Assembly (NCBI GenBank): GCA_947624945.1
Contig: CANQMJ010000002.1
Location: 1 to 37,040, forward strand
Direction of reading: 5' to 3'
Origin: an uncultured Clostridia bacterium
Lineage (GTDB): Bacteria > Bacillota > Clostridia > Oscillospirales > CAG-272
Length of the DNA: 37,040 nucleotides
Part shown: piece by piece, positions 3,085 through 36,330 of the stretch
Layout: every line of letters starts with the position of its first letter
How positions within the stretch are numbered: position 1 is the stretch's first letter
Notes under the pieces: generated by a model
Told to the model about the DNA's origin: nothing
Database searches by the model: none
Seen by the model: the letters and a program-made list of their open reading frames with translations, nothing else
Position numbers and translations under genes: made by a program

Positions 3085-3157
3085 TAATAAAAGTTTTTGA
3101 AGAGAGGGAGGTCCGGAGGGATAGGGACTTTTTTCAAAAAGTCCCTATCCCTCCGGA
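3085..3157 (+). repeat. family-1 hairpin element between SD-like tract and hslO start
   Basis: TAATAAAAGTTTTTGAAGAGAGGGAGG is followed by a 22-bp perfect stem TCCGGAGGGATAGGGACTTTTT / AAAAAGTCCCTATCCCTCCGGA. The ATG lies 12 nt after the stem. Confidence 0.9.
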
Positions 3158-4045: not shown

Positions 4046-4183
4046 GGCGCGGCGCAGTTTGACGCAGACGCGATGCCGGTTGCATCACACTTTTTACAAA
4101 GCGACCGCGCCGCCGAACCACTGTCACCACACTTTCCGCGAAGCGAAAAGTGTAAGACGGCTTCGAGTGCAACGAGAAGACGT
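4046..4183. repeat. cluster of REP-like hairpins
   Basis: Contains CACACTTTCCGC-GAA-GCGAAAAGTGT (4128..4153) and related degenerate units. It lies directly after the hslO stop and leads into large-element copy A. Confidence 0.75.
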
Positions 4184-4601
4184 TACACACACTTTCTGCG
4201 TGAGCGAAAACGTGTCGCAGGTCGGAGCATCAGCGACGAACTGCCGCTCACCGCGGTTCAATGTACAGTCTGTCACCACCGGCAACTACCTTTGCACACC
4301 TGAAGTGGTGACGTCTTTCACACCTTCGAATAGGTTTTTTGACAAGGGGGACTTTCTCGCAAGAAAGAGATGATCGGGAATGAGGACTTTTTCTTTATAA
4401 GAAAAGGTCCTCCCCCGAACCCCCTATCCAAAAGAACACCGCGTTATTATTTCCTGCGAACAGCTCCCTCGCGACGTGTCGATATCGCCGTCAAAACGTC
4501 GTGTCTGCGTCTGACGCTGGACGCGCCGTCCAGCGCACGAGCGCGGTGCGCGTAGGTGAGGCTGGGAAGCCTCCGGCTCGTCTCTGTTATTTGGTCGGCG
4601 G
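4184..4601 (+). repeat. large hairpin-rich element, copy A (internally replaced)
   Basis: Collinear with 34597..35085, except that 4368..4438 is a family-1 hairpin (GAGGAC.../...GTCCTC, CCCCGAACCCCCTATCC) in place of the central ~95-nt conserved block. Confidence 0.85.
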
Positions 4602-15661: not shown

Positions 15662-15673
15662 GAGGTGGGAGAA

Positions 15674-16480
15674 ATGTCAAACTCGAAAAGATTCTTATCC
15701 CGTCCGCTTGCCGTGTTCGGGGTGATAGTACTTGCCGCCGCAATAGCGGCGGGAGTCGTGGTAGCGGCGCTTTACGCGTACGGGTTCCGATACATCAAGA
15801 TACCGTCGCCGGACGGAGGATTTGATAAGTTTTTGGGCATTGTAGACAAAAGCGGCGACCCGCACCGCGGGCAAATAGTGTATTCCAACGGTTTGTCCGC
15901 CAACGTCGACTCCGAGACAGGTAAGATCACATACTCGAACGGCGACGTCTACGACGGCGAGATGGAGAACCTGCGCCGCGACGGCAAAGGGACGATCACG
16001 TTCAAAAACGGCGACGTCTACACCGGCGATTTCGTCATGGACGAGCTGACGGGACAGGGCACGTACACGTACTCGAACGGCGACGTCTACGAGGGCGGCT
16101 TCGTGAACGGCGAGAAAAACGGTCAGGGCAAGTACACGTGGTCGGACGGCAGCGTCTACGAGGGCGGCTTCTCGAAGGACAGGAAAAACGGTCAGGGCGT
16201 CTATCACTGGGCTGACGGCAGCAGCTACGAGGGCGAATACGTAAACGATATGAAGCAGGGACGCGGCGTCTACATCTACGCGAACGGCGACAAATACGAG
16301 GGCGACTTCGACGGCGACGTCCGGTCCGGCACAGGCACCTACACATGGCAGAACGGGGAATACTACGTCGGCGAGTTCGCGGACAACGCGCCGAACGGCG
16401 AGGGCACATATTCTTGGCCCGACGGCAGATCATACAGCGGTCATTTTATAAATGGCGAAATAGTTCGCATAGAAGAGTGA
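15674..16480 (+). CDS. membrane-anchored MORN-repeat protein
   Basis: N-terminal TM segment (FGVIVLAAAIAAGVVVAALYAY) followed by about 9 tandem MORN-type units (YSNGDVYEGGFVNGEKNGQGKYTW...). The ATG at 15674 follows GAGGTGGGAG; the tracked GTG at 15665 lies inside that RBS. Confidence 0.8.
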   Translation: MSNSKRFLSRPLAVFGVIVLAAAIAAGVVVAALYAYGFRYIKIPSPDGGFDKFLGIVDKSGDPHRGQIVYSNGLSANVDSETGKITYSNGDVYDGEMENLRRDGKGTITFKNGDVYTGDFVMDELTGQGTYTYSNGDVYEGGFVNGEKNGQGKYTWSDGSVYEGGFSKDRKNGQGVYHWADGSSYEGEYVNDMKQGRGVYIYANGDKYEGDFDGDVRSGTGTYTWQNGEYYVGEFADNAPNGEGTYSWPDGRSYSGHFINGEIVRIEE

Positions 16481-16608: not shown

Positions 16609-17057
16609 TTTTTCGCGAAGCGAAAACCGCCGCCGTCCAAATGAGGGCAACGAGCCGTCAGGCTTTCAAGTGAACACTACGCGCACCGTGCTCGTGCGAT
16701 GTGCGGCGCGACACGGCTGGACGCAGACACGACGTTTGGACGGCGATATCGCCGTGCCGCGAGGGAGCTGTTCGCAGGAAATGATAACGCGGTCTGCGCC
16801 CTGATCATATTTTGCCGCAGACTGGATAACATCGACGCCACACGGGAGCCTCTTTCGGGTTCGACAAGGGGGACTTTCTTGCGAGAAAGTCCCCCTTGTC
16901 AAAAACCTATTCAAAGGTGTGAAAGACGTCACCACGTCTTATGTGCAAAGGTAGCTGCCGGTGGGGGCAGACGGCATAAACATCCGCGGTGAGCGGCAGT
17001 TCGCAGCTAACGCTACGACCTGCGACACGTTTTCGCTACGCGAAAAGTGTGGGAGAA
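16609..17057 (-). repeat. large hairpin-rich element, copy B
   Basis: The reverse complement is about 90% identical to 34597..35085 in the conserved blocks. It contains the perfect 17-bp hairpin GACAAGGGGGACTTTCT / AGAAAGTCCCCCTTGTC. Confidence 0.9.
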
Positions 17058-17126
17058 CCCAGTTATGGGTGCGGTATGTCACTGACGCGAAAAGTAAAAA
17101 ATAATACTTAATTTTGTGAAATGCAC

Positions 17127-17155
17127 TTGACATACTGCAATTTTTGTGGTATAAT
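17127..17155 (+). promoter_or_regulatory. consensus sigma-A promoter (repeated promoter module, copy 1)
   Basis: TTGACA, 17-nt spacer, TGgTATAAT. About 85% identical over about 65 nt to the module at 34525..34595. Confidence 0.8.
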
Positions 17156-17161
17156 ATAGGC

Positions 17162-17282
17162 AGTTGATAAGATATGGTGTATGAAAGTTCATTCCGTAGA
17201 TGTGGCGGCGAATAAGGCGGCGCGCGGCACATCTGCCGGAACGGTGCATTTGTTGCCGCGCCGTGTTTCTTTTCATTCTTTT
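17162..17282 (+). ncRNA. candidate small RNA / attenuated leader upstream of rpmH
   Basis: Predicted start about 7 nt after the -10 box. GC-rich stem CGGCGCG(c)G(g)CA / TGCCGCGCCG (17218..17263) is followed by TGTTTCTTTTCATTCTTTT. A second promoter for rpmH lies downstream, so this may be a separate unit. Confidence 0.35.
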
Positions 17283-20550: not shown

Positions 20551-20627
20551 GCAGGGAGAGAGGAAAACTTCTTATAAGAAGTTTTCCTCTCTCCCTGCAC
20601 CCTCTTTCTTTTCAAGAATTTTTATGA
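20551..20627 (-). repeat. family-1 hairpin element; probable terminator of the rpmH-jag operon
   Basis: Perfect 48-nt palindrome GCAGGGAGAGAGGAAAACTTCTTA / TAAGAAGTTTTCCTCTCTCCCTGC, followed by ACCCTCTTTCTTTTCAAGAATTTTTATGA. Confidence 0.9.
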
Positions 20628-23812: not shown

Positions 23813-23895
23813 CGCGATATAGGATCAAATCCGTATCATTTTGCGCCGTTTTGCCATATAATGTAAAATATTACAGATAAATTCATATCGGCGGG

Positions 23896-24077
23896 TGTGG
23901 AATGTCTATTCGACAAACGTATATTTTCAACAATCTGTGGAAAAGGGTGTGGAAAACTCAAATCGAGTGGGGAAACAGATGTGAAAACAAGCGTGTCGAA
24001 AACGGAAAATCGAGCAAAATATAGCGCGCCGCGGATGTGAAAAAAAATACTTTATCGGTCAAAATCGGTGTTGAAAA
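23896..24077. promoter_or_regulatory. DnaA-box cluster (oriC, downstream of dnaA)
   Basis: Matches to TTATCCACA or its complement: TGTGGAAAA at 23936 and 23948 (8/9 each), TTTTCAACA at 23924 (7/9), TGTGAAAAA at 24036 (7/9), TGTTGAAAA at 24069 (7/9), plus 6/9 sites at 23896, 23968 and 23980. Confidence 0.7.
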
Positions 24078-24232
24078 CACGTTTTCGGCGCAAAAATCGG
24101 AGTATTCGGCGATATTACTAAAAAAGTTTCCCATATTTTATAAATGTTTCAAACATGCAACGAGCCGTGATCTCAACAGAAAGCAAAACGCGGAGACAGT
24201 CGAAAAAATCAGCGTTTTTGGACGTCTCAGAG

Positions 24233-24241
24233 TTTTCCACA
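24233..24241 (+). promoter_or_regulatory. DnaA box adjacent to the unwinding element
   Basis: TTTTCCACA (8/9), 12 nt upstream of the trinucleotide-periodic run. Confidence 0.65.
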
Positions 24242-24253
24242 CAGTCAACACGA

Positions 24254-24277
24254 CTACTACGATTACTACTGCTAATA
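24254..24277. promoter_or_regulatory. DnaA-trio-like trinucleotide repeat
   Basis: CTA CTA CGA TTA CTA CTG CTA ATA on the top strand. This is TAG/TAA on the bottom strand (5 of 8 units), lying between a DnaA box and the AT-rich tract as in the Bacillus subtilis oriC unwinding module. Confidence 0.55.
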
Positions 24278-24300
24278 AAAATAAATATTTATGTATGTAA
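24272..24300. other. AT-rich candidate DNA unwinding element of oriC
   Basis: CTAATAAAAATAAATATTTATGTATGTAA is the most AT-rich stretch of the window and lies immediately after the trio-like run. Confidence 0.55.
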
Positions 24301-24424
24301 GACAGACAAACACGGATAGAGAAATTTTCAACATAATACGTTGAAACATTCAGACAGATACAAACAGACATAAAAACAGTTATTGATATTATGCAGAGAC
24401 ATCATTAAACGTGCTAAAATAAAA

Positions 24425-25052
24425 TAGCCATAAAAGTTTTGAACACATATAGTATCAGGAGAAACTTTTTTATTTGCGGAGCCCCTTTTTGTAGAAAGGT
24501 AGGAGTTTTGTCGCTTACGCTCCAAACCTCCGAACACAGTGAGGAGATGCTCCCCTCACAAAAGCGGACTAAATAGTGCTTATCTTAAGTTCGCTCGAAA
24601 AATTTTGTTATCTAAAAAACACAGCAAAATAAAAAAATGTCATAAAAGTTTTTGAATGAGTTAGGTAGTTTGGCGCAAGCGCCAACCTACGGCACATTTT
24701 CGCTGCGCGAAAAGTGCGGGGTTCGGGGGAGTTTTGTCGCTTACGCGCCAAACCTCCGACACTTTCCGCAAAGCGGAAAGTGTGGGTCAAAAGCAGGGAT
24801 TTCACTAACACGATAAATAAAAATAAGTCATAAAAGTTTTTGAACACATACAGTATCAGGAGAAACTTTTTTATTTGCGGAGCCCCTTTTTGTAGAAAGG
24901 TAGGAGTTTTGTCGCTTACGCTCCAAACCTCCGACACTTTTCGCAAAGCGAAAAGTGTGGCAGCTCCGAACGTAGTGAGGAGATGCTCCCCTCACAAAAG
25001 CGGACTAAATAGTGTTCATCTTAAGCTATCACTGAAGATATTGTTTCCGTTT
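24425..25052 (-). repeat. family-2 composite repeats, three tandem units in the oriC-dnaN spacer
   Basis: Units start at about 24425, 24637 and 24825, each with (T)CATAAAAGTTTTTGAA. REP hairpins lie at 24692..24717, 24758..24784 and 24933..24959. Unit 1 lacks the REP core. Confidence 0.85.
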
Positions 25053-25074
25053 ACTTAAATAAAACAAAATAAAG

Positions 25075-25137
25075 TAATAAAAGTTTTTAAAGAGGAGGTT
25101 CGGAGGAGAAACTTTTTTCAAAAAGTTTCTCCTCTGA
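25075..25137 (+). repeat. family-1 hairpin element between SD-like tract and dnaN start
   Basis: TAATAAAAGTTTTTAAAGAGGAGG, then the stem TCGGAGGAGAAACTTTTT / AAAAAGTTTCTCCTCTGA, then 11 nt and the dnaN ATG. Confidence 0.9.
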
Positions 25138-25148
25138 GAAATCAAACC

Positions 25149-26303
25149 ATGAAATTAGTTTTCGAAAAGACGCCGCTGATCGCGGCGGTGACGCCGGCGA
25201 TGAACGCGACGTCGAACAAGAACACGCTGACGGCGATAGACGGGCTTCTGTTTGAGGCGAAGGAAGGCGGCGGCGAGTGCGTCATAACCGCCTACGACAA
25301 CGAGAAAGGCATACGCACGTCGGTCGAGGCCGAGGTCAGGGAGCCCGGAAGCTATATAATAAACGCGCAGAAGTTCTTCTCCATAATCAGAATGATGCCG
25401 AACGACGAGATCACCGTCACCGTCAGCGATAAAATGAACGTGAAAATAGAGAGCGGACGCAGTAGCTTCGAGCTGCACGCGCTGCCCGGCTCCGACTTCC
25501 CATCGCTGCCTACACTGTCCGGCGACCGCGGATTCGTCGTCGCACAGCATATCATGAAAAAATTCATCGCGCAGACGTCGTTCGCGATAGCGCAAAAGGA
25601 TCAGCGCCCCATCTTCACCGGCGCTTACTTCCACGTAACTAAGGACGGCATGACCGTCGTCGCATGCGACGGAAACAGACTGTCCCGCTGCCGCACGAGC
25701 GGCGGCATCGCGGGTCACGGCGAGGACGATATCCCCGAGATGAACTTCAACGTTCCCGGCAAAACGCTGTTTGAGCTCGGCAAGCTGCTCGCCGATTCGG
25801 AGGATACGATGAGAGTGTCGCTGACGAGACGCCACGTCATTTTCACGGTCGGCAATATCGTGTTCTTCTCGCGCCTCATCGACGGCGAATACATCGACTA
25901 CGAGAGAATAATCCCGAAAACGCATGAAACGACGGTCGAGATCGACAGAGCCGAACTCGTCGCGTCGCTCGAACGCGCGTCCCTTATGATAGAGGAAAAA
26001 TCGGGCGGCGCAAGAGGTCACGTCGCGTGCACGTTTACGGGCGATAAGCTCGCGATAAACGCCGACAGCGTCTCCGGCTCCGTGTACGATGAAATACCGA
26101 TCTCCATGTCGGGCAGCGATATCAGGATAGGCTTCAACTGCCGCTTTTTACTCGACGCCGCAAGAGCTGCCGACGCCGAAACGGTCAAGATCGAGCTCAC
26201 CTCGCCGCTCATGGGCGTATGTATAACAGATAATGATCCCGACCGCGCAGAGGACGAGGGCGACTTCCTGTTCTTTGTCATGCCGGTAAGGATGAAGGAC
26301 TAA
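25149..26303 (+). CDS. dnaN: DNA polymerase III beta sliding clamp
   Basis: 384-aa ORF with a DnaN-like N-terminus (MKLVFEKTPLIAAVTPAMNATSNKNTLTAIDGLLFEA) and three-domain length. It is the next gene downstream of dnaA, 1.3 kb away. Confidence 0.95.
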   Translation: MKLVFEKTPLIAAVTPAMNATSNKNTLTAIDGLLFEAKEGGGECVITAYDNEKGIRTSVEAEVREPGSYIINAQKFFSIIRMMPNDEITVTVSDKMNVKIESGRSSFELHALPGSDFPSLPTLSGDRGFVVAQHIMKKFIAQTSFAIAQKDQRPIFTGAYFHVTKDGMTVVACDGNRLSRCRTSGGIAGHGEDDIPEMNFNVPGKTLFELGKLLADSEDTMRVSLTRRHVIFTVGNIVFFSRLIDGEYIDYERIIPKTHETTVEIDRAELVASLERASLMIEEKSGGARGHVACTFTGDKLAINADSVSGSVYDEIPISMSGSDIRIGFNCRFLLDAARAADAETVKIELTSPLMGVCITDNDPDRAEDEGDFLFFVMPVRMKD

Positions 26304-26322
26304 AATTTTCTTCGGAGAGAAA

Positions 26323-26460
26323 TTAAGATAATCAGATTTGGTCCGCTTTTGTGAAGGGAGCGTCTCCTCACTGCGTTCGGAGCTGTCACACTTTCCGCTT
26401 TGCGGAAAGTGTCGGAGGTTTGGAGCGTAAGCGACAAAACTCCCACCTTTCTACAAAAAG
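26323..26460 (+). repeat. family-2 composite repeat (dnaN-recF spacer)
   Basis: Near-identical to 2046..2200, with REP at 26387..26412. Confidence 0.9.
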
Positions 26461-26524
26461 ATTCTCCATGCAACAACCGATAGTGATGATTAAAAGGACA
26501 ATAAAATAAGGTTTTCGGAGCGTC

Positions 26525-26650
26525 GATTAGATAATCGGTTCAGATTAGCTTTTTTAGAGGAGCACGAAGTAGTTTGGCGCATCGCGCCAAACTACGACAC
26601 TTTTCGCAAAGCGAAAAGTGTAGCAGTGCCAAACTTCTTTCTAAAAAAGG
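26525..26650. repeat. family-2 variant with inverted REP dyad
   Basis: GTAGTTTGGCGC-ATC-GCGCCAAACTAC (26569..26595) is immediately followed by GACACTTTTCGC-AAA-GCGAAAAGTGT (26596..26621). The dyad order is reversed relative to 26387..26445. Confidence 0.85.
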
Positions 26651-28726: not shown

Positions 28727-30688
<1,962 letters not shown>

Positions 30689-30820: not shown

Positions 30821-30877
30821 AAGAAAAGTTTTTGAGGAGGGTCCGGGAGGGACTTTTTACAAAAAGTCCTTCCCGGG
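30821..30877 (+). repeat. family-1 hairpin element between SD-like tract and gyrA start
   Basis: AAGAAAAGTTTTTGAGGAGGG, then the stem TCCGGGAGGGACTTTTT / AAAAAGTCCTTCCCGGG (with G-T pairs), then 5 nt and the gyrA ATG. Confidence 0.9.
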
Positions 30878-30882
30878 AAATC

Positions 30883-33447
30883 ATGAAAGAACAAGAAAGA
30901 GTAGATTTTCCTGATCAGAAGATAATAGACGTCGAGATGCATGAGGAGGTCAAGAAGTCCTTTATTGCGTACTCGATGAGTGTTATAACGAGCAGGGCGC
31001 TGCCTGACGTAAGGGACGGCATGAAGCCGGTGCAGAGGCGAATTTTATATTCGATGTTCGAGGAAAAATTCACCTACGACCGTCCGATACCGAAGTCGGC
31101 GAAGATCGTCGGCGCCGTCATGGGTAATTATCACCCGCACGGCGACTCGTCGATTTATTTTGCGCTGATCAGAATGGCGCAGCCGTTCTCGTATCGTTAT
31201 CCGCTCGTATTCTGCGATTCCAACTACGGTACCGTAGACGGCGACCCGCCGGCTGCGATGCGTTACACCGAGACGAAGCTCGCGAAGCTGGCGGATGAAA
31301 TGGTCGCCGACATCGGCAAGGACGTCGTCGATTTCAGACCGAACTACGACAATACGCTGAAAGAGCCCGTCGTTTTGCCGTCGCGTTTCCCGAATCTGCT
31401 CGTCAACGGCAGCATGGGCATCGCGGTCGGTATGGCGACGAACATTCCGACGCACAATTTAGCCGAGACGATAGACGGCACGCTTTATCTGATGGATCAC
31501 CCCGATGCGACGACGGGCGAGCTGATGCAGTACATCAAGGGCCCCGACTTCCCGACGGGAGCGATAATATACGGCACGTCGGGCATTTATGAGGCGTATG
31601 CGACGGGACGCGGGCATATCACCGTCCGCTCGCGGTGCGAGATAGACGAGGAGCATCACCGCATCACCGCGACAGAGATACCGTACGGCGTAAACAAGAG
31701 CGAGCTTGTCAAGTCGATATGGGCGCTCAAGGAAGAAAAGCGCGTCGACGGCATGACGGGGCTCCGCGACGAGTCGGGACGCCACGGCATGAAGATAGTC
31801 ATCGACTACCGCCGCGACGTCAACCCGCAGGTGCTCTTAAATCAGCTTTTCCGCTACACGCAGCTCCAGGACACGTGCGCGGTCAACATGGTCGCGCTCG
31901 TCGGCGGCGAGCCGAAGACGTGTACGCTCAAGGATATCCTCGTCGAGTACATCAAGCATCAGGAGGACGTCGTAACGAGGCGGCTCCGCTTCGATCTTGC
32001 GCGCGCGAAACGCGAGGCGCACATATACGAGGGTTACAAGATCGCGCTCGACTACATTGACGAGATAGTGAAGCTCATACGCGCCGCGTCCTCCATCGCG
32101 GATGCGAAGATATCGCTCTGCGACCGGTTCGGTCTTGACGACGTGCAGGCGCAGGCGATAGTGGACATGACGCTCGGCAGACTGACGGGTCTTGAACGTC
32201 AGAAGGTCGAGGACAGGCTCGCGAAGCTGTACGAGGAGATAGACTATATCGAGGGAATACTCGCCGACGAAAATAAGCTCAAAGCGCTCATCAAGTCGGA
32301 GATGACGGCGATACGCGACAAGTACGCGGACGAAAGACGCACCGAGATCGTGCCGGTCGAGGACGAAATTCTGACCGAGGACCTCATCGAGCGCCACAAC
32401 TGCCTCATCACGGTCACGCACGCCGGCTACATCAAGCGCCAGCGCGCCGACGTCTACTCCGCGCAGAGACGCGGCGGCAAGGGCATCATCGCCATGTCGA
32501 CGAAAGAGGAGGACTTCATCGAGCGCGTCATCGCGGCGGACAGTCACAGCGATCTGTTGATGTTCACCGATACGGGCAAGGTGTTCACGCGCCGCGCATA
32601 TCAGATACCAGAGTCGGGACGCACGTCGCGCGGTACGAATATAGCGAATATAATCGAGCTCGAGCAGGGCGAAAGCGTGACCGCGTTCGTCACCGTCAAC
32701 GACGCTGACGGCGACGGATACAAGAACGGTTATCTTGCGATGGTGACGAGAAACGGCACCGTCAAGCGCACACCGCTTTCCGAGTTCGAGTATCAGCGCA
32801 AGGGCGGCAAGCGCGCCATCACGCTCGAGGACGGCGACGAGCTCATGTTTGTCGGCTGCACGGACGGCGAACGCGATATCATAATCGCGTCGTCGTCGGG
32901 ACGCGCCGTCAGATTCAGCGAGAGCGGCGTCCGCAGTCAGGGCAGGACGGCGAGAGGCGTCCGCGGCATCCGTCTGCGCGAGGGCGAGCGCGTCGTCGGC
33001 GCGACGATAGTCGAGCCGGGCAAGACGCTCCTTACGATAACGGAGAACGGATTCGGCAAGCGAACGGAGTTCGATCTGTTCGAGGTCAAGAACCGCGGCG
33101 GACTCGGCATATTCTGCCACAACATCACGCCTCGCACGGGCGCGCTCGTCGGTATCGCGTCGGCGGGCGAGGACGAAGACATCATGCTCATCACCGACAC
33201 GGGCGTCATGATACGCACGCATGCGGGCGACATAAGCACGTACCGCCGTGCGGCGTCGGGCGTTATCGTGATGAGGACGGGCGATTCGAAAGTGGCGAAT
33301 TTCGCGGTCGTGGAACGCGACGACGAAGCCGAGGTCGCATCGGTTGAGCTCACCGAGCAGGAAGAAGCCGTCGACGATGTAAACGATGCAGACGATGAAG
33401 TCGACGTCGATGAAACGAGCATCGACGACACGAACGATAATGAATGA
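30883..33447 (+). CDS. gyrA: DNA gyrase subunit A
   Basis: Start at MKEQERV.. by N-terminal family pattern (SFIAYSMSVITSRALPDVRDGMKPVQRRILY). Active-site AAMRYTE motif, an acidic C-terminal tail. The tracked start at 30832 runs through a repeat hairpin. Confidence 0.95.
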   Translation: MKEQERVDFPDQKIIDVEMHEEVKKSFIAYSMSVITSRALPDVRDGMKPVQRRILYSMFEEKFTYDRPIPKSAKIVGAVMGNYHPHGDSSIYFALIRMAQPFSYRYPLVFCDSNYGTVDGDPPAAMRYTETKLAKLADEMVADIGKDVVDFRPNYDNTLKEPVVLPSRFPNLLVNGSMGIAVGMATNIPTHNLAETIDGTLYLMDHPDATTGELMQYIKGPDFPTGAIIYGTSGIYEAYATGRGHITVRSRCEIDEEHHRITATEIPYGVNKSELVKSIWALKEEKRVDGMTGLRDESGRHGMKIVIDYRRDVNPQVLLNQLFRYTQLQDTCAVNMVALVGGEPKTCTLKDILVEYIKHQEDVVTRRLRFDLARAKREAHIYEGYKIALDYIDEIVKLIRAASSIADAKISLCDRFGLDDVQAQAIVDMTLGRLTGLERQKVEDRLAKLYEEIDYIEGILADENKLKALIKSEMTAIRDKYADERRTEIVPVEDEILTEDLIERHNCLITVTHAGYIKRQRADVYSAQRRGGKGIIAMSTKEEDFIERVIAADSHSDLLMFTDTGKVFTRRAYQIPESGRTSRGTNIANIIELEQGESVTAFVTVNDADGDGYKNGYLAMVTRNGTVKRTPLSEFEYQRKGGKRAITLEDGDELMFVGCTDGERDIIIASSSGRAVRFSESGVRSQGRTARGVRGIRLREGERVVGATIVEPGKTLLTITENGFGKRTEFDLFEVKNRGGLGIFCHNITPRTGALVGIASAGEDEDIMLITDTGVMIRTHAGDISTYRRAASGVIVMRTGDSKVANFAVVERDDEAEVASVELTEQEEAVDDVNDADDEVDVDETSIDDTNDNE

Positions 33448-34060
33448 TAAAAATAAGTCGGTAAAAGTTTTTGAAAAGGGGGGTGCAGGGAGCTTTTCCG
33501 AAGGAAAAGCCAACTTTCTCCTGAAAAGTTTCCCCCTGCTCCTGACCCTTCTTCTCCTCCTGACGTCCTGCGCGGGCGGGGTGCCGGAGGATGAAGCGGC
33601 GGGGATAGTAAGCGAGCTGGTCGAAGCGTCGCTGCCGCTCAACGAGATATATTTCGGAGAGGGGATGCCGGTCGAGGAGGACGGTTACGGTGCGTACAGG
33701 GCCGTGACGGACGATGCGCCGTATCTGACGGAGGCGGCGCTGCGCGAGGCGACCGAGGCTGTATTCACGGGCAGCTATTCCGAGTATCTGTTTGGGATGT
33801 TTCTGACCGGTTACAGCGACGACGACGTGGACGGCGTCGTGTACGCGCGGTATGTGGAGAACGGCGACAGGCTGTCGATGCGAGTCGCGGGAGATGTGGA
33901 GAAAATTCCCGCGCGCGAGTATGACATGGATTCGATCGTGATAATCCGCACGACGAAGGACACTATCGAGGCGGAGATCACGTCCGATGACGGCACCGTC
34001 GTCGACGTGACGGCGCGGCTCGAGGACGCCGGCTGGCGGCTCGATTCCCCTACGTATTAA
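33440..34060 (+). CDS. putative lipoprotein (start uncertain)
   Basis: Signal peptide with lipobox: KSFPLLLTLLLLLTS-C-AGG. The first in-frame ATG (33440) overlaps the gyrA stop and has no RBS. CTG at 33521 would give a textbook MKSFPLLL... signal. I do not recognise the mature domain. Confidence 0.55.
   Translation: MNDKNKSVKVFEKGGAGSFSEGKANFLLKSFPLLLTLLLLLTSCAGGVPEDEAAGIVSELVEASLPLNEIYFGEGMPVEEDGYGAYRAVTDDAPYLTEAALREATEAVFTGSYSEYLFGMFLTGYSDDDVDGVVYARYVENGDRLSMRVAGDVEKIPAREYDMDSIVIIRTTKDTIEAEITSDDGTVVDVTARLEDAGWRLDSPTY
33461..33539 (+). repeat. family-1 variant with nested double hairpin (after gyrA)
   Basis: GTAAAAGTTTTTGAAAAGGGGGGTGCAGGGAGCTTTTCCGAAGGAAAAGCCAACTTTCTCCTGAAAAGTTTCCCCCTGC. 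It overlaps the 5' part of the lipoprotein ORF. Confidence 0.85.
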
Positions 34061-34460
34061 GCGGGTGGTTTTCGCGAAGCGAAACCGCCGCAGAACAAGC
34101 TTCACCACACTTTTCGCGAAGCGAAAACGTGTAGTAGCTCCGAACGTAGTGAGGAGATACCGGCTTCGCAGCTTCACGTTTGCGCACCTCGCTCGTGCGC
34201 TGACGGCGCGACACGGCTTGACGCAGACACGACGTTTTGGCAGCGCACTCGCCGTGCCGCGAGGGAGCTGTTCGCAGGAAGTGTTGACGCGGTCGGAGCC
34301 CCGATGCCTTTTTTGCCGCAGACTCGATAACAACGTAGGCATGTAGTGCCGCTTTCGGGGATCATTAATGGGGCTGGGAGATTCCGCTTGCGGAATCTCC
34401 GGAAGTTGTCTTTGACAACTTCCACTTTCACCGACACTGGAAAGAGTCCCTTAATACGCG
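34061..34460 (-). repeat. large hairpin-rich element, diverged copy C1
   Basis: The reverse complement shares the blocks TTATCGAGTCTGCGGCAA, GACCGCGT..TTCCTGCGAACAGCTCCCTCGCGGC, AAACGTCGTGTCTGCGT and CACGAGCGAGGTGCGC. The central hairpin is replaced by GGAGATTCCGC/GCGGAATCTCC (34377..34400) and GGAAGTTGTC/GACAACTTCC (34401..34423). Confidence 0.8.
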
Positions 34461-34541
34461 TGTATTCGTCGAGCGAAGGACGAAATAGCCACCTTATGCT
34501 GTGAGCATATAAAAAATTCACATTGATTTGTGAAAAAACAC

Positions 34542-34570
34542 TTGACAGATTGCAAATTTTGTGGTATAAT
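34542..34570 (+). promoter_or_regulatory. consensus sigma-A promoter (repeated promoter module, copy 2)
   Basis: TTGACA, 17-nt spacer, TGgTATAAT. It fires into the large repeat element at 34597..35085. Confidence 0.8.
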
Positions 34571-34596
34571 ATAGGCAGTTCAAGAGAAATAGTGTT

Positions 34597-35085
34597 CTCC
34601 CACACTTTTCGCGAAGCGAAAACGTGTCGCAGGTCGTAGCGTTAGCTGCGAACTGCCGCTCACCGCGGTTCAATGTGCGTTGCACACCGACCGGCAGCTA
34701 CCTTTGATTACCTGACGTGGTGACGTCTTTCACACCTTTCAACCGGTTTTTGACAAGGAGGACTTTCTCGCGAGAAAGTCCCCCTTGTCGAACCCGAAAG
34801 AGGCTCCCGTGTGGCGTCGATGTTATCCAGTCTGCGGCAAGAAATGCTTCGGGGCGTAGACCGCGTTATCATTTCCTGCGAACAGCTCCCTCGCGGCGTG
34901 TCGACTGCGTCGTCGAAACGTCGTGTCTGCGTTTGACAATGGGTGCGTCGGGCATCACACGAGCGCGGTGCGCGTAGGTGAAACTGCGAAGCCTTACGGC
35001 GGCAGTTCGTCGCTATCGCGCCGACCTGCGACACGTTTCCGCTGGCGCGGAAAGTGTGGCGTTGCCATTACTTGGACGGCGGTAG
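34597..35085 (+). repeat. large hairpin-rich element, copy C2 (promoter-proximal, with ~60-nt terminal inverted repeats)
   Basis: This is the most complete copy. The left arm 34600..34659 and right arm 34999..35059 are imperfect inverted repeats, each a REP hairpin plus a GCAG...CTGC hairpin. It starts about 20 nt after the predicted transcription start of the 34542 promoter. Confidence 0.9.
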
Positions 35086-35128
35086 GGGACGTATAAATTT
35101 TCATCTTTAGAAAAAATAGAAAATGGTA

Positions 35129-35157
35129 TTGATTTTTTTCCGTGTATCTGTTACAAT
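35129..35157 (+). promoter_or_regulatory. putative recA promoter
   Basis: TTGATT, 17-nt spacer, TACAAT, 40 nt upstream of the recA ATG. Confidence 0.6.
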
Positions 35158-35161
35158 AGAG

Positions 35162-35175
35162 AAAACAAATGTTCG
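35162..35175. promoter_or_regulatory. putative LexA (Cheo) box
   Basis: AAAACAAATGTTCG versus the Firmicutes consensus CGAACATATGTTCG. The right half is perfect and the left half degenerate. It lies just downstream of the recA -10 box. Confidence 0.5.
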
Positions 35176-35196
35176 GTTTAGGAGAAAATAAAAGCT

Positions 35197-36330
<1,134 letters not shown>

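Follow-up and report, generated by a model that had tools for sequence, protein, structure and literature searches.

The 37,040-nt stretch of contig CANQMJ010000002.1 from an uncultured Clostridia bacterium (positions 1-37040, referred to here as the window) was found to carry, upstream of recA, a member of a repeat family which, with a probability of roughly 0.6, is best explained as a transcribed, recombining and lineage-specific mosaic repeat bearing its own promoter, non-autonomous and non-coding in the sense of bacterial interspersed mosaic elements (BIMEs), BOX elements or miniature inverted-repeat transposable elements (MITEs). The family has a modular anatomy, is present in dozens of copies, is restricted to one lineage and has had modules replaced at an orthologous locus in a related genome.

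Four copies of a hairpin-rich element had been described within the window in a first-pass annotation, and all four were recovered by repeat finding and by blastn (query window:34560-35110), at 4188-4572 (+), 16654-17058 (-), 34105-34335 (-, partial and diverged) and 34594-35085 (+). The near-identical blocks which they were said to share reappeared on alignment, and the start proposed for the fourth copy, ~20 nt past the predicted transcription start, was placed at ~34595-34601. The copies (c1 to c4) are assembled from a promoter module (P), from arms and from units resembling repetitive extragenic palindromic (REP) sequences, the last being of X or Y type. A long arm consists of module A, a 17-bp perfect palindrome (H), module B, a core (C) and a 3' tail. 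The parts located in the window are as follows:

4124..4601, + strand: copy c1, with a solo REP-like unit (~4124-4183), an X unit (~4189-4245) and then a long arm, from alignment and blastn.
16609..17059, - strand: copy c2, a long arm of type 1 that carries an X unit (~16997-17053); its tail, terminal hairpin included, lies at 16609-16660.
17095..17185, + strand: second P module (TTGACA 17127-17132, TATAAT 17150-17155), predicted promoter back-to-back with c2 and pointing towards rpmH.
34061..34475, - strand: copy c3, a diverged type-2 arm, back-to-back with P.
34510..34600, + strand: promoter module P, a 12/12 consensus match, with 24 copies aligned.
34601..34657, + strand: X-type REP-like two-hairpin unit, an optional insertion at CTCC^GCTCAC, the 5' end of the arm.
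34658..34998, + strand: long arm of copy c4, type 1, modules A-H-B-C, from alignments.
35002..35058, - strand: second X unit, inverted and inserted in the 3' tail of the arm.
35059..35082, + strand: remainder of the c4 arm 3' tail (GCGTTGCCATTACTTGGACGGCGG), where the family similarity stops.

Within c4, module A extends over ~34658-34749, palindrome H over 34749-34792, module B over 34793-34875 and core C over 34876-34994, while the left X unit reads CACAC-TTTTCGC-GAA-GCGAAAA-CGTGT plus GCAGGTCG..CGAACTGC. Copy c1 has no P module, and its module B is swapped for a terminator-like hairpin (GAGGACTTTTTCTT..AAGAAAAGGTCCTC). Copy c3 is made up of a tail and terminal hairpin (34061-34105), a Y-type REP-like unit (34106-34161), core C (34162-34277), a B' module reaching 34335 and, farther to the 5' side, a compensated palindrome of its own. 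This type-2 subtype recurs at loci L005, L010, L022 and L023 of the related genome introduced below, to which L-numbers such as L001-L030 refer.

The repeat is not confined to this region. When the exact 20-mer CTGCGAACAGCTCCCTCGCG was searched against one representative genome per species (185,579 species), 30 matches were obtained, 28 of them on 27 contigs of a single metagenome-assembled genome (MAG), 'uncultured Clostridia bacterium Lapin-004__bin51' (CANPXS01), which is related to the genome of the window but separate from it. The other two genome matches, and a single viral match, comprised the bare 20-mer only. Since the 20-mer occurs 31 times in this one MAG and elsewhere as just three isolated chance matches, the copies are far beyond chance. 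Copy counts were taken over the window together with 238 kb of CANPXS01 loci. The BLASTN check of copy number proposed in the first-pass annotation gave a genome-wide distribution with 48 core C copies or fragments, a pattern search identified 24 P modules, and the same arm is present at more than 25 unrelated loci. The JGI metagenomes, scanned with a gapped pattern, returned seven matches, all of them chance matches in DNA of 63-70% GC, and no family member was found there or in plasmid and phage collections. Likewise, no module was present around rpmH in the ten relatives examined, which share an identical L34 protein and ~70-75% DNA identity. The family is confined to one lineage of uncultured gut Clostridia. 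Close strains were also sought by exact-protein look-up, in which the Hsp33, RadA and 224-aa gene products had no record; three Logan/ENA contigs of close strains (L049, L050 and L051, with identical RecA or RnpA protein) stop exactly within the repeat or the P module, which shows that short-read assemblies of this lineage are fragmented by the family.

The promoter reported at 34542-34570 (TTGACA-17-TATAAT with an upstream TG) was substantiated as a 12/12 consensus match; the earlier account of it has to be corrected in that the promoter is itself repeated. Module P is ~110 nt long and comprises an AT-rich upstream part followed by the -35, an extended -10 and a purine-rich leader (consensus AGGCAGTTAAGGGAAAGAGGTG); at c4 the -35 lies at 34542-34547 and the extended -10 (TGTGGTATAAT) at 34560-34570, with a leader ending ..GTGTTCTCC. 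Among the 24 aligned copies (71% mean identity) the hexamers and flanking bases are invariant and an 8-nt stretch in the middle of the spacer is variable, which is the signature of a promoter maintained by selection. Judged from this alignment the promoter hexamers are under selection, and with its consensus hexamers, 17-nt spacing and conservation over a variable background the module has the features expected of a functional sigma-70/sigma-A promoter. The repeat is probably transcribed. A Shine-Dalgarno-like stretch (AAGGGAAAGAGGTG in consensus; window 34577-34596) is present in all P leaders, ~10 nt from the predicted 5' end, with no conserved open reading frame (ORF) after it; presumably it is akin to the 'STAB-SD' elements which stabilise Bacillus mRNAs at the 5' end. 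A perfect palindrome, TTCACA-N6-TGTGAA, was also noted just 5' of the -35 (window 34517-34534) in 6 of the 24 copies, the others being those of L001, L010, L012, L023 and L030, and the remaining copies have one degenerate half-site. It could be a candidate regulator-binding site or an UP-like element.

Module P was found at most repeat-carrying loci, where it faces a same-strand gene at only about half of them, the other half or so facing the 3' end of a convergent gene. Selfish or neutral placement fits this distribution better than a dedicated leader, and a function of P as dedicated gene promoter or 5' leader was ruled out on the same ground.

Mapping of six query modules onto every locus yielded a recurrent composite (arm <- | P -> arm) with arms of varied length and subtype. 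The long arm is usually placed on the upstream side of P, past a ~45-nt spacer, and reads away from it back-to-back. Most long arms lack their own promoter; that the spacer between P and arm might hold a second one serving the long arm was considered and rejected, as candidate hexamers there are not conserved in spacing. At 12 loci P is followed downstream by a short arm composed of core C and tail and preceded by a leader, which pairs with the invariant C block as the hairpin GCGGGGGAG-U-CUG-CGAA-CAG-CUCCCUCGC. Two C modules are thus inverted around P, an arrangement observed at about 15 loci. P reading straight into a long arm is rare, being limited to three loci (c4 in the window, L010 and L026), at each of which the junction runs through a REP-like unit. 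In both arrangements, that is at 12 short-arm and three long-arm loci, P reads core C in one constant sense. In a further variant P is followed by almost nothing (c2 of the window at 17127, L004, L006, L018 and others). The palindrome of the type-2 arm is fully compensated (GTTAAGGACCTCTTTCC..GGAAAGAGGCCCTTAAC versus GACAAGGGGGACTTTCT..AGAAAGTCCCCCTTGTC), and in most copies the 3' tail is uninterrupted (GAAGCCTACGGCTCGTTGCC...TTGGACGGCGG).

Core C is conserved in blocks. Its invariant segments are AACAGCTCCCTCGCG, ACGTCGTGTCT, GCACGAGC and GAAGCC, and an alignment of 38 copies (80% mean identity) contains a 15-nt invariant run (permutation p = 1e-5). Sequence-specific recognition fits such block-wise conservation better than a simple fold, and the alignment indicates that blocks of core C are under selection. 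The polarity of the core is constant at every copy, as is the AACAGCTCCCTCGCG block. It is conceivable, though we regard it as unlikely, that core C is the recognition module of a dedicated system, either a trans-acting, P-driven RNA of ~190 nt or a site-specific recombination which moves the promoter cassette. The targets of such an RNA would be the ~45 genomic C sites or Shine-Dalgarno sequences, and the cassette would move among ~25 chromosomal sites. If true, this would represent a genome-wide promoter-shuffling or regulatory network private to a Clostridia lineage.

The ~60-nt inverted repeats which had been taken to bound the recA-proximal copy do exist (34601-34657 and 35002-35058, 85-87% complementary) but are not the ends of the element, being separately inserted REP-like units. 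These units are 55-60 nt in length and combine a core hairpin, CACAC-TTTYCGC-NNN-GCGRAAA-GTGTG, with a variable second hairpin. Among 20 copies compared at the 5' site, CTCC^GCTCAC, the X unit is absent from others or replaced by a Y-type unit. The 3' tail is split by X or Y units at one point, TACGGC^GCGTTGCC, in c4, L004, L008, L018, L019 and L022, and a third site lies within a variable hairpin of C (L006, L009, L021 and L025). X and Y types occupy the same sites, and REP-like units are located at module junctions as well. For the core hairpin, 53 occurrences were counted in 238 kb; it is paired with at least five different second hairpins and belongs to several repeat families. In the window a unit stands alone at 4124-4183 and others form part of a second mosaic family (1850-2210, 24400-25100 and 26300-26620). 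Short imperfect palindromes are thus numerous here, occur singly or in clusters and in either orientation, and are combined with other motifs; in this the units match REP sequences in their behaviour, and the composites match BIMEs (features as given in PMC3184786).

The same observations bear on whether the element is a classical MITE with terminal inverted repeats (TIRs), in which the ~60-nt inverted repeats would be the ends and the transposase of an insertion sequence (IS) would provide mobility. Inverted 57-nt units do flank c4, and the family is non-coding, multi-copy and strongly folded as MITEs are. However, most arms are devoid of one or both units, the units sit inside arm sequence with the tail continuing past the right-hand one, no target-site duplication was seen, at most 1 nt (C) being shared at the insertion sites of the units, and the units are found by themselves and in other repeat families too, which makes a MITE of this kind very improbable. 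ORFs recurring in the flanks were rejected as transposase candidates, since they are a five-member set of ~470-aa lipoprotein-like paralogues, ABC transporters and permeases. The paralogues (L001:5567-6997, L002:1215-2618, L002:4235-5815, L003:5775-7181 and L011:2645-4054) share DPxCxH and GDLYY motifs with no Pfam hit and lie beside ABC-transporter genes, often also beside repeat copies. An association with tRNA genes was dismissed too, amounting to just two incidental neighbours.

Turnover of the modules was observed directly at recA. The recA region of the MAG (L004) is orthologous to that of the window, with flanking genes 93-96% identical. Between the stop codon of the gene at 33386-34060 and the arm, the window has the type-2 arm c3, a P module facing recA and an X unit, whereas L004 has 209 nt at the equivalent place with P facing the other way, no c3 and no left X unit; the segment 34061-~34860 has thus been replaced. 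Identities between the window and L004 are as follows:

A-H-B: 85% identity, 30 differing columns.
Core C: 138/139 identical.
Right X unit: 61/61 identical.
recA: 96.0% identity.
recX: 93.1% identity.

The fall from 138/139 in core C to 85% in A-H-B places a recombination breakpoint at the 5' edge of C (~34860), and the homology between short and long arms likewise begins there. On this comparison, modules are exchanged on a short time scale. Across core C and the right X unit (199/200 identical) one difference was observed where ~10 would be expected at 5% divergence, so that these segments are more conserved than the neighbouring coding DNA and at least C/X appears to be constrained.

These rearrangements could be taken for the work of an invertible or shufflable promoter switch, in which inverted core C copies flip or exchange the P cassette, by site-specific recombination at the invariant AACAGCTCCCTCGCG or by homologous recombination, and so act as a switch for read-through into recA or other neighbours. 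P does lie between inverted C modules at ~15 loci, its orientation relative to recA is opposite in two genomes with flanks 93-96% identical, the breakpoint falls at the 5' edge of C, and junctions of every type, whether with a short leader, a long arm or the GGCAT variant, meet just 5' of the invariant block. However, a simple inversion cannot interconvert the two states of the recA locus, one of which has no second C copy and a different A-H-B; no recombinase gene was seen nearby, and for about half of the P modules the gene ahead is convergent, with its 3' end towards P. A switch is considered improbable.

No terminator-like site was found between P and the recA start, and transcription from a constitutive P is therefore expected to continue across ~0.5 kb of folded repeat and into recA, whose own predicted promoter (35129-35157) is followed by a plausible LexA box. 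It had been suggested that the element might be a structured leader of recA. A dedicated cis-regulatory 5' leader would account for P lying upstream with no terminator before the gene; nonetheless it is effectively excluded by the distribution, as the same sequence is found at more than 25 unrelated loci and P points away from recA in the orthologous locus of the MAG. P at recA is accordingly regarded as a strain-specific by-product and not as a conserved leader.

The view that the element is non-coding was upheld, since the lengths of indels between copies are not divisible by three and the copies do not keep the ORF frame. The ORFs 34717-34977 and 16666-16935 have 46 aa in common (85% identity) and then diverge through a 1-nt indel. 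A protein-coding reading was rejected for these reasons, and a small-protein gene, for which the 86-aa ORF 34717-34977 might speak, is as good as excluded along with the leader because its frame breaks between copies. The repeat is also multi-copy with no associated ORF, in line with its description as non-autonomous.

That the element is rich in hairpins was confirmed for the predicted c4 transcript (-238 kcal/mol, z = -10.2), with folding z-scores of -5 to -10 overall. It matches no known RNA family, as had been supposed: the whole window gave no Rfam match at the gathering score, and a search in E-value mode with 33900-35250 and one short-arm locus gave sub-threshold generic hairpin matches only. 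The further claim that the variable segments keep folding into hairpins held for some of them. In module A some hairpins keep their pairing through compensatory changes, including the double changes CCGC/GCGG to CCGU/ACGG and GUACA/UGUAC to GUGCG/CGCAC. Six pairs with 31 compensated cells were counted, a number of cells reached in none of 500 shuffles, and the covariation score was 0.194 compared with 0.126 in shuffles. As related copies inflate shuffle statistics, this covariation is taken as real but modest, and it does not discriminate between RNA and single-stranded DNA. Folding is equally good on the antisense strand (z = -9.9), with similar alignment folds. The consensus fold of core C is weak (-10.7 kcal/mol and one compensated pair for 38 copies), and of the 80 pairs predicted for the long arm 3 are compensated, its long-range helices being uninformative because they join invariant blocks. 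No covariation was detected in GTAGG/CCTAC and several other helices picked by eye in C, and a G-C to G-U change previously cited as evidence for RNA loses its force, as the helix concerned (GTCTGCG/CGYAGAC) also has uncompensated G.A, A.A and A.C.

A stand-alone large RNA gene, the other proposal of the first-pass annotation, is contradicted by the same arm recurring at more than 25 unrelated loci and by P reading into a long arm at only three. Being a genome-wide mosaic repeat which carries its own promoter, the element is neither a single large RNA gene nor a leader specific to recA. It is possible, although we consider it distinctly less probable than a mosaic repeat, that the copies are genuine multi-copy RNA genes. 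P would then drive a ~190-nt short-arm RNA, and sometimes a ~480-nt long-arm RNA, whose C-rich blocks GCUCCCUC and GGCUCCCG act in trans, for example through Shine-Dalgarno pairing like the UCCC-motif small RNAs of Firmicutes. The clear selection on the promoter, the constant sense of C at 12 short-arm and three long-arm loci, the invariant blocks of C and its 99% conservation between orthologues would all be explained, as would the covariation in module A, the folding z-scores and the Shine-Dalgarno-like leader, which may be a 5' stabiliser. Set against this are the weak fold of core C, the few compensated pairs of the long arm, the equally good antisense fold, the promoterless state of most long arms and the unconserved hexamer spacing, together with 3' ends which are heterogeneous and have no common terminator. 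Absence from all relatives examined would also be unusual for a functional RNA.

If the family is a mosaic repeat, its spread and reshuffling would take place at the DNA level. Copies would recombine homologously or convert one another, the breakpoints falling at REP-like units and at the 5' edge of C, and a trans-acting enzyme may contribute to the spread. Firing of P would give abundant, highly folded RNAs, ~190 nt in length from the short arms, in addition to read-through downstream. At recA the result would be an extra, LexA-independent upstream promoter, with a transcript passing through the ~0.5 kb folded repeat into the gene as a by-product of module shuffling.

Several observations weigh against this explanation. 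No gene for a REP-associated tyrosine transposase (RAYT) or other transposase was found in ~275 kb of lineage DNA, of which only a few proteins were screened. Target-site duplications were not seen at arm or composite ends in the copy alignments, and arm similarity fades after ..TTGGACGGCGG, the 3' tails being ragged with no sharp common terminus. The compensatory changes in module A, the invariant blocks of core C and the near-identity of C and X between orthologues point beyond selfish spread, and the intermediates of the covarying pairs (~21 G.U versus 5 A.C) favour the sense strand, which fits a role as RNA or as a single strand. The invariant core blocks and the near-identity of orthologues suggest that at least one module has a specific role.

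Should the mosaic explanation be correct, a gut anaerobe with a small genome harbors dozens of portable copies of a predicted strong promoter, set within a folded repeat, beside core genes such as recA, rpmH/rnpA and radA. Since the arrangement differs between genomes ~5% apart, the family would actively feed both transcriptional rewiring and chromosomal recombination. In practical terms it is a hazard too, because short-read assemblies break at it and because it can be confused with riboswitch-like leaders or small RNA genes.

The window is an origin-proximal housekeeping region containing Hsp33, radA, PFOR, rpmH-rnpA-yidC-jag, trmE, dnaA, dnaN, recF, gyrB, gyrA, recA and recX. Unlike in most relatives, dnaA is not beside rpmH, upstream of which a MORN-repeat gene (15665-16480) and c2 are located instead. 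The spacer between dnaA and dnaN is the usual site of oriC in Firmicutes. Here the spacer (23813-25148) is AT-rich and filled by the second mosaic family, which has two near-identical blocks of ~180-210 nt in it (24432-24609 and 24833-25045) and copies also at 1850-2210 and 26300-26620. This family consists of the same CACAC hairpin with other hairpins, and its copies flank dnaN/recF and the gene at 2288; dnaN is the only real gene in the ~275 kb with REP-like units on both sides. A third hairpin family, GGGGGAARAAAACTTYTTTCAARAAGTTTTYCTTCCCCC, often following GTMATAAAAGTTYTTGAA, was noted at many gene boundaries (73-140, 1673-1721, 3122-3157, 20562-20597, 25078-25141, 30847-30882 and others; also L012, L024 and L029), for example directly 5' of the dnaN start codon, and may represent bidirectional terminators or hairpins of 5' untranslated regions. 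An ARAGORN prediction of 'tRNA-???' with a 4-base anticodon at 29126-29218, inside gyrB, is almost certainly a false positive.

Among known systems, REP sequences and BIMEs of enterobacteria and pseudomonads are high-copy short imperfect palindromes, single or paired and in both orientations, which form mosaics with conserved motifs (PMC3184786; for REPINs, PMC8049555). The present family resembles them in being intergenic, often between convergent genes, without MITE-type ends and associated with recombination. It differs in having no sequence similarity to them, in the larger size of its mosaics (0.4-1 kb), in its long non-palindromic arms with invariant blocks and complete consensus promoter, and in a host from a Gram-positive-type Clostridia lineage. 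The BOX elements of Streptococcus pneumoniae are modular (boxA-boxB(n)-boxC) and 67-637 bp in length (PMC3184786). They too are of variable length, limited to one Firmicutes lineage, strongly folded, non-coding and of uncertain mobilisation, and they are transcribed, as the present family probably is. However, the modules and their order differ, and the present family has its own promoter and inverted long arms; BOX is not known to carry such a consensus promoter module.

Correia elements (CREE) are 100-155 bp in length with 26-bp TIRs and a TA duplication (PMC3184786). CREE and REP2 of Neisseria are described as bringing functional promoters to many unrelated loci, REP2 also providing a ribosome-binding site (PMC3184786; Siddique et al. 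2011 via PMC3575422). The likeness lies in interspersed promoter-carrying repeats which give small transcripts or rewire neighbours, as is predicted for the present family, the difference from REP2 being that REP2 is located directly before start codons, whereas P is ~110 nt long, lies between long arms and faces a gene at about half of its loci. Putative mobile promoters are similar promoter regions found before unrelated sequences in one genome, most families being pairs (Matus-Garcia/Nijveen/van Passel; PMC3575422). Highly similar promoters at unrelated loci and an unknown route of mobilisation are common to both, but the term is a descriptive category, and the present family has at least 24 members and an associated repeat architecture.

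The invertons of gut bacteria have a promoter flanked by inverted repeats and an orientation which differs between related genomes at one locus, as is the case here. Their repeats are short (tens of bp) and lie beside the target of a recombinase, whereas the present repeats are 120-170 bp and ~20% diverged, and the change of orientation at recA is accompanied by other replacements. The omega RNA of IS200/IS605, HEARO/IscB RNA, OLE, GOLLD and ROOL are structured non-coding RNAs present in multiple copies, with transcription directed to the element end. The present family differs from these in having no Rfam match at any threshold tried and no sharp element end followed by a variable guide; no TnpB/IscB-like gene was noticed among the ~20 proteins screened. 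The family is classed here as a large mosaic repeat centred on a promoter and restricted to a single Clostridia lineage; it works like the known promoter-bearing and mosaic repeats but by sequence belongs to none of them. While the general phenomenon has been described before (PMC3184786, PMC3575422), what is unusual here is the anatomy, and some modules are clearly under selection.

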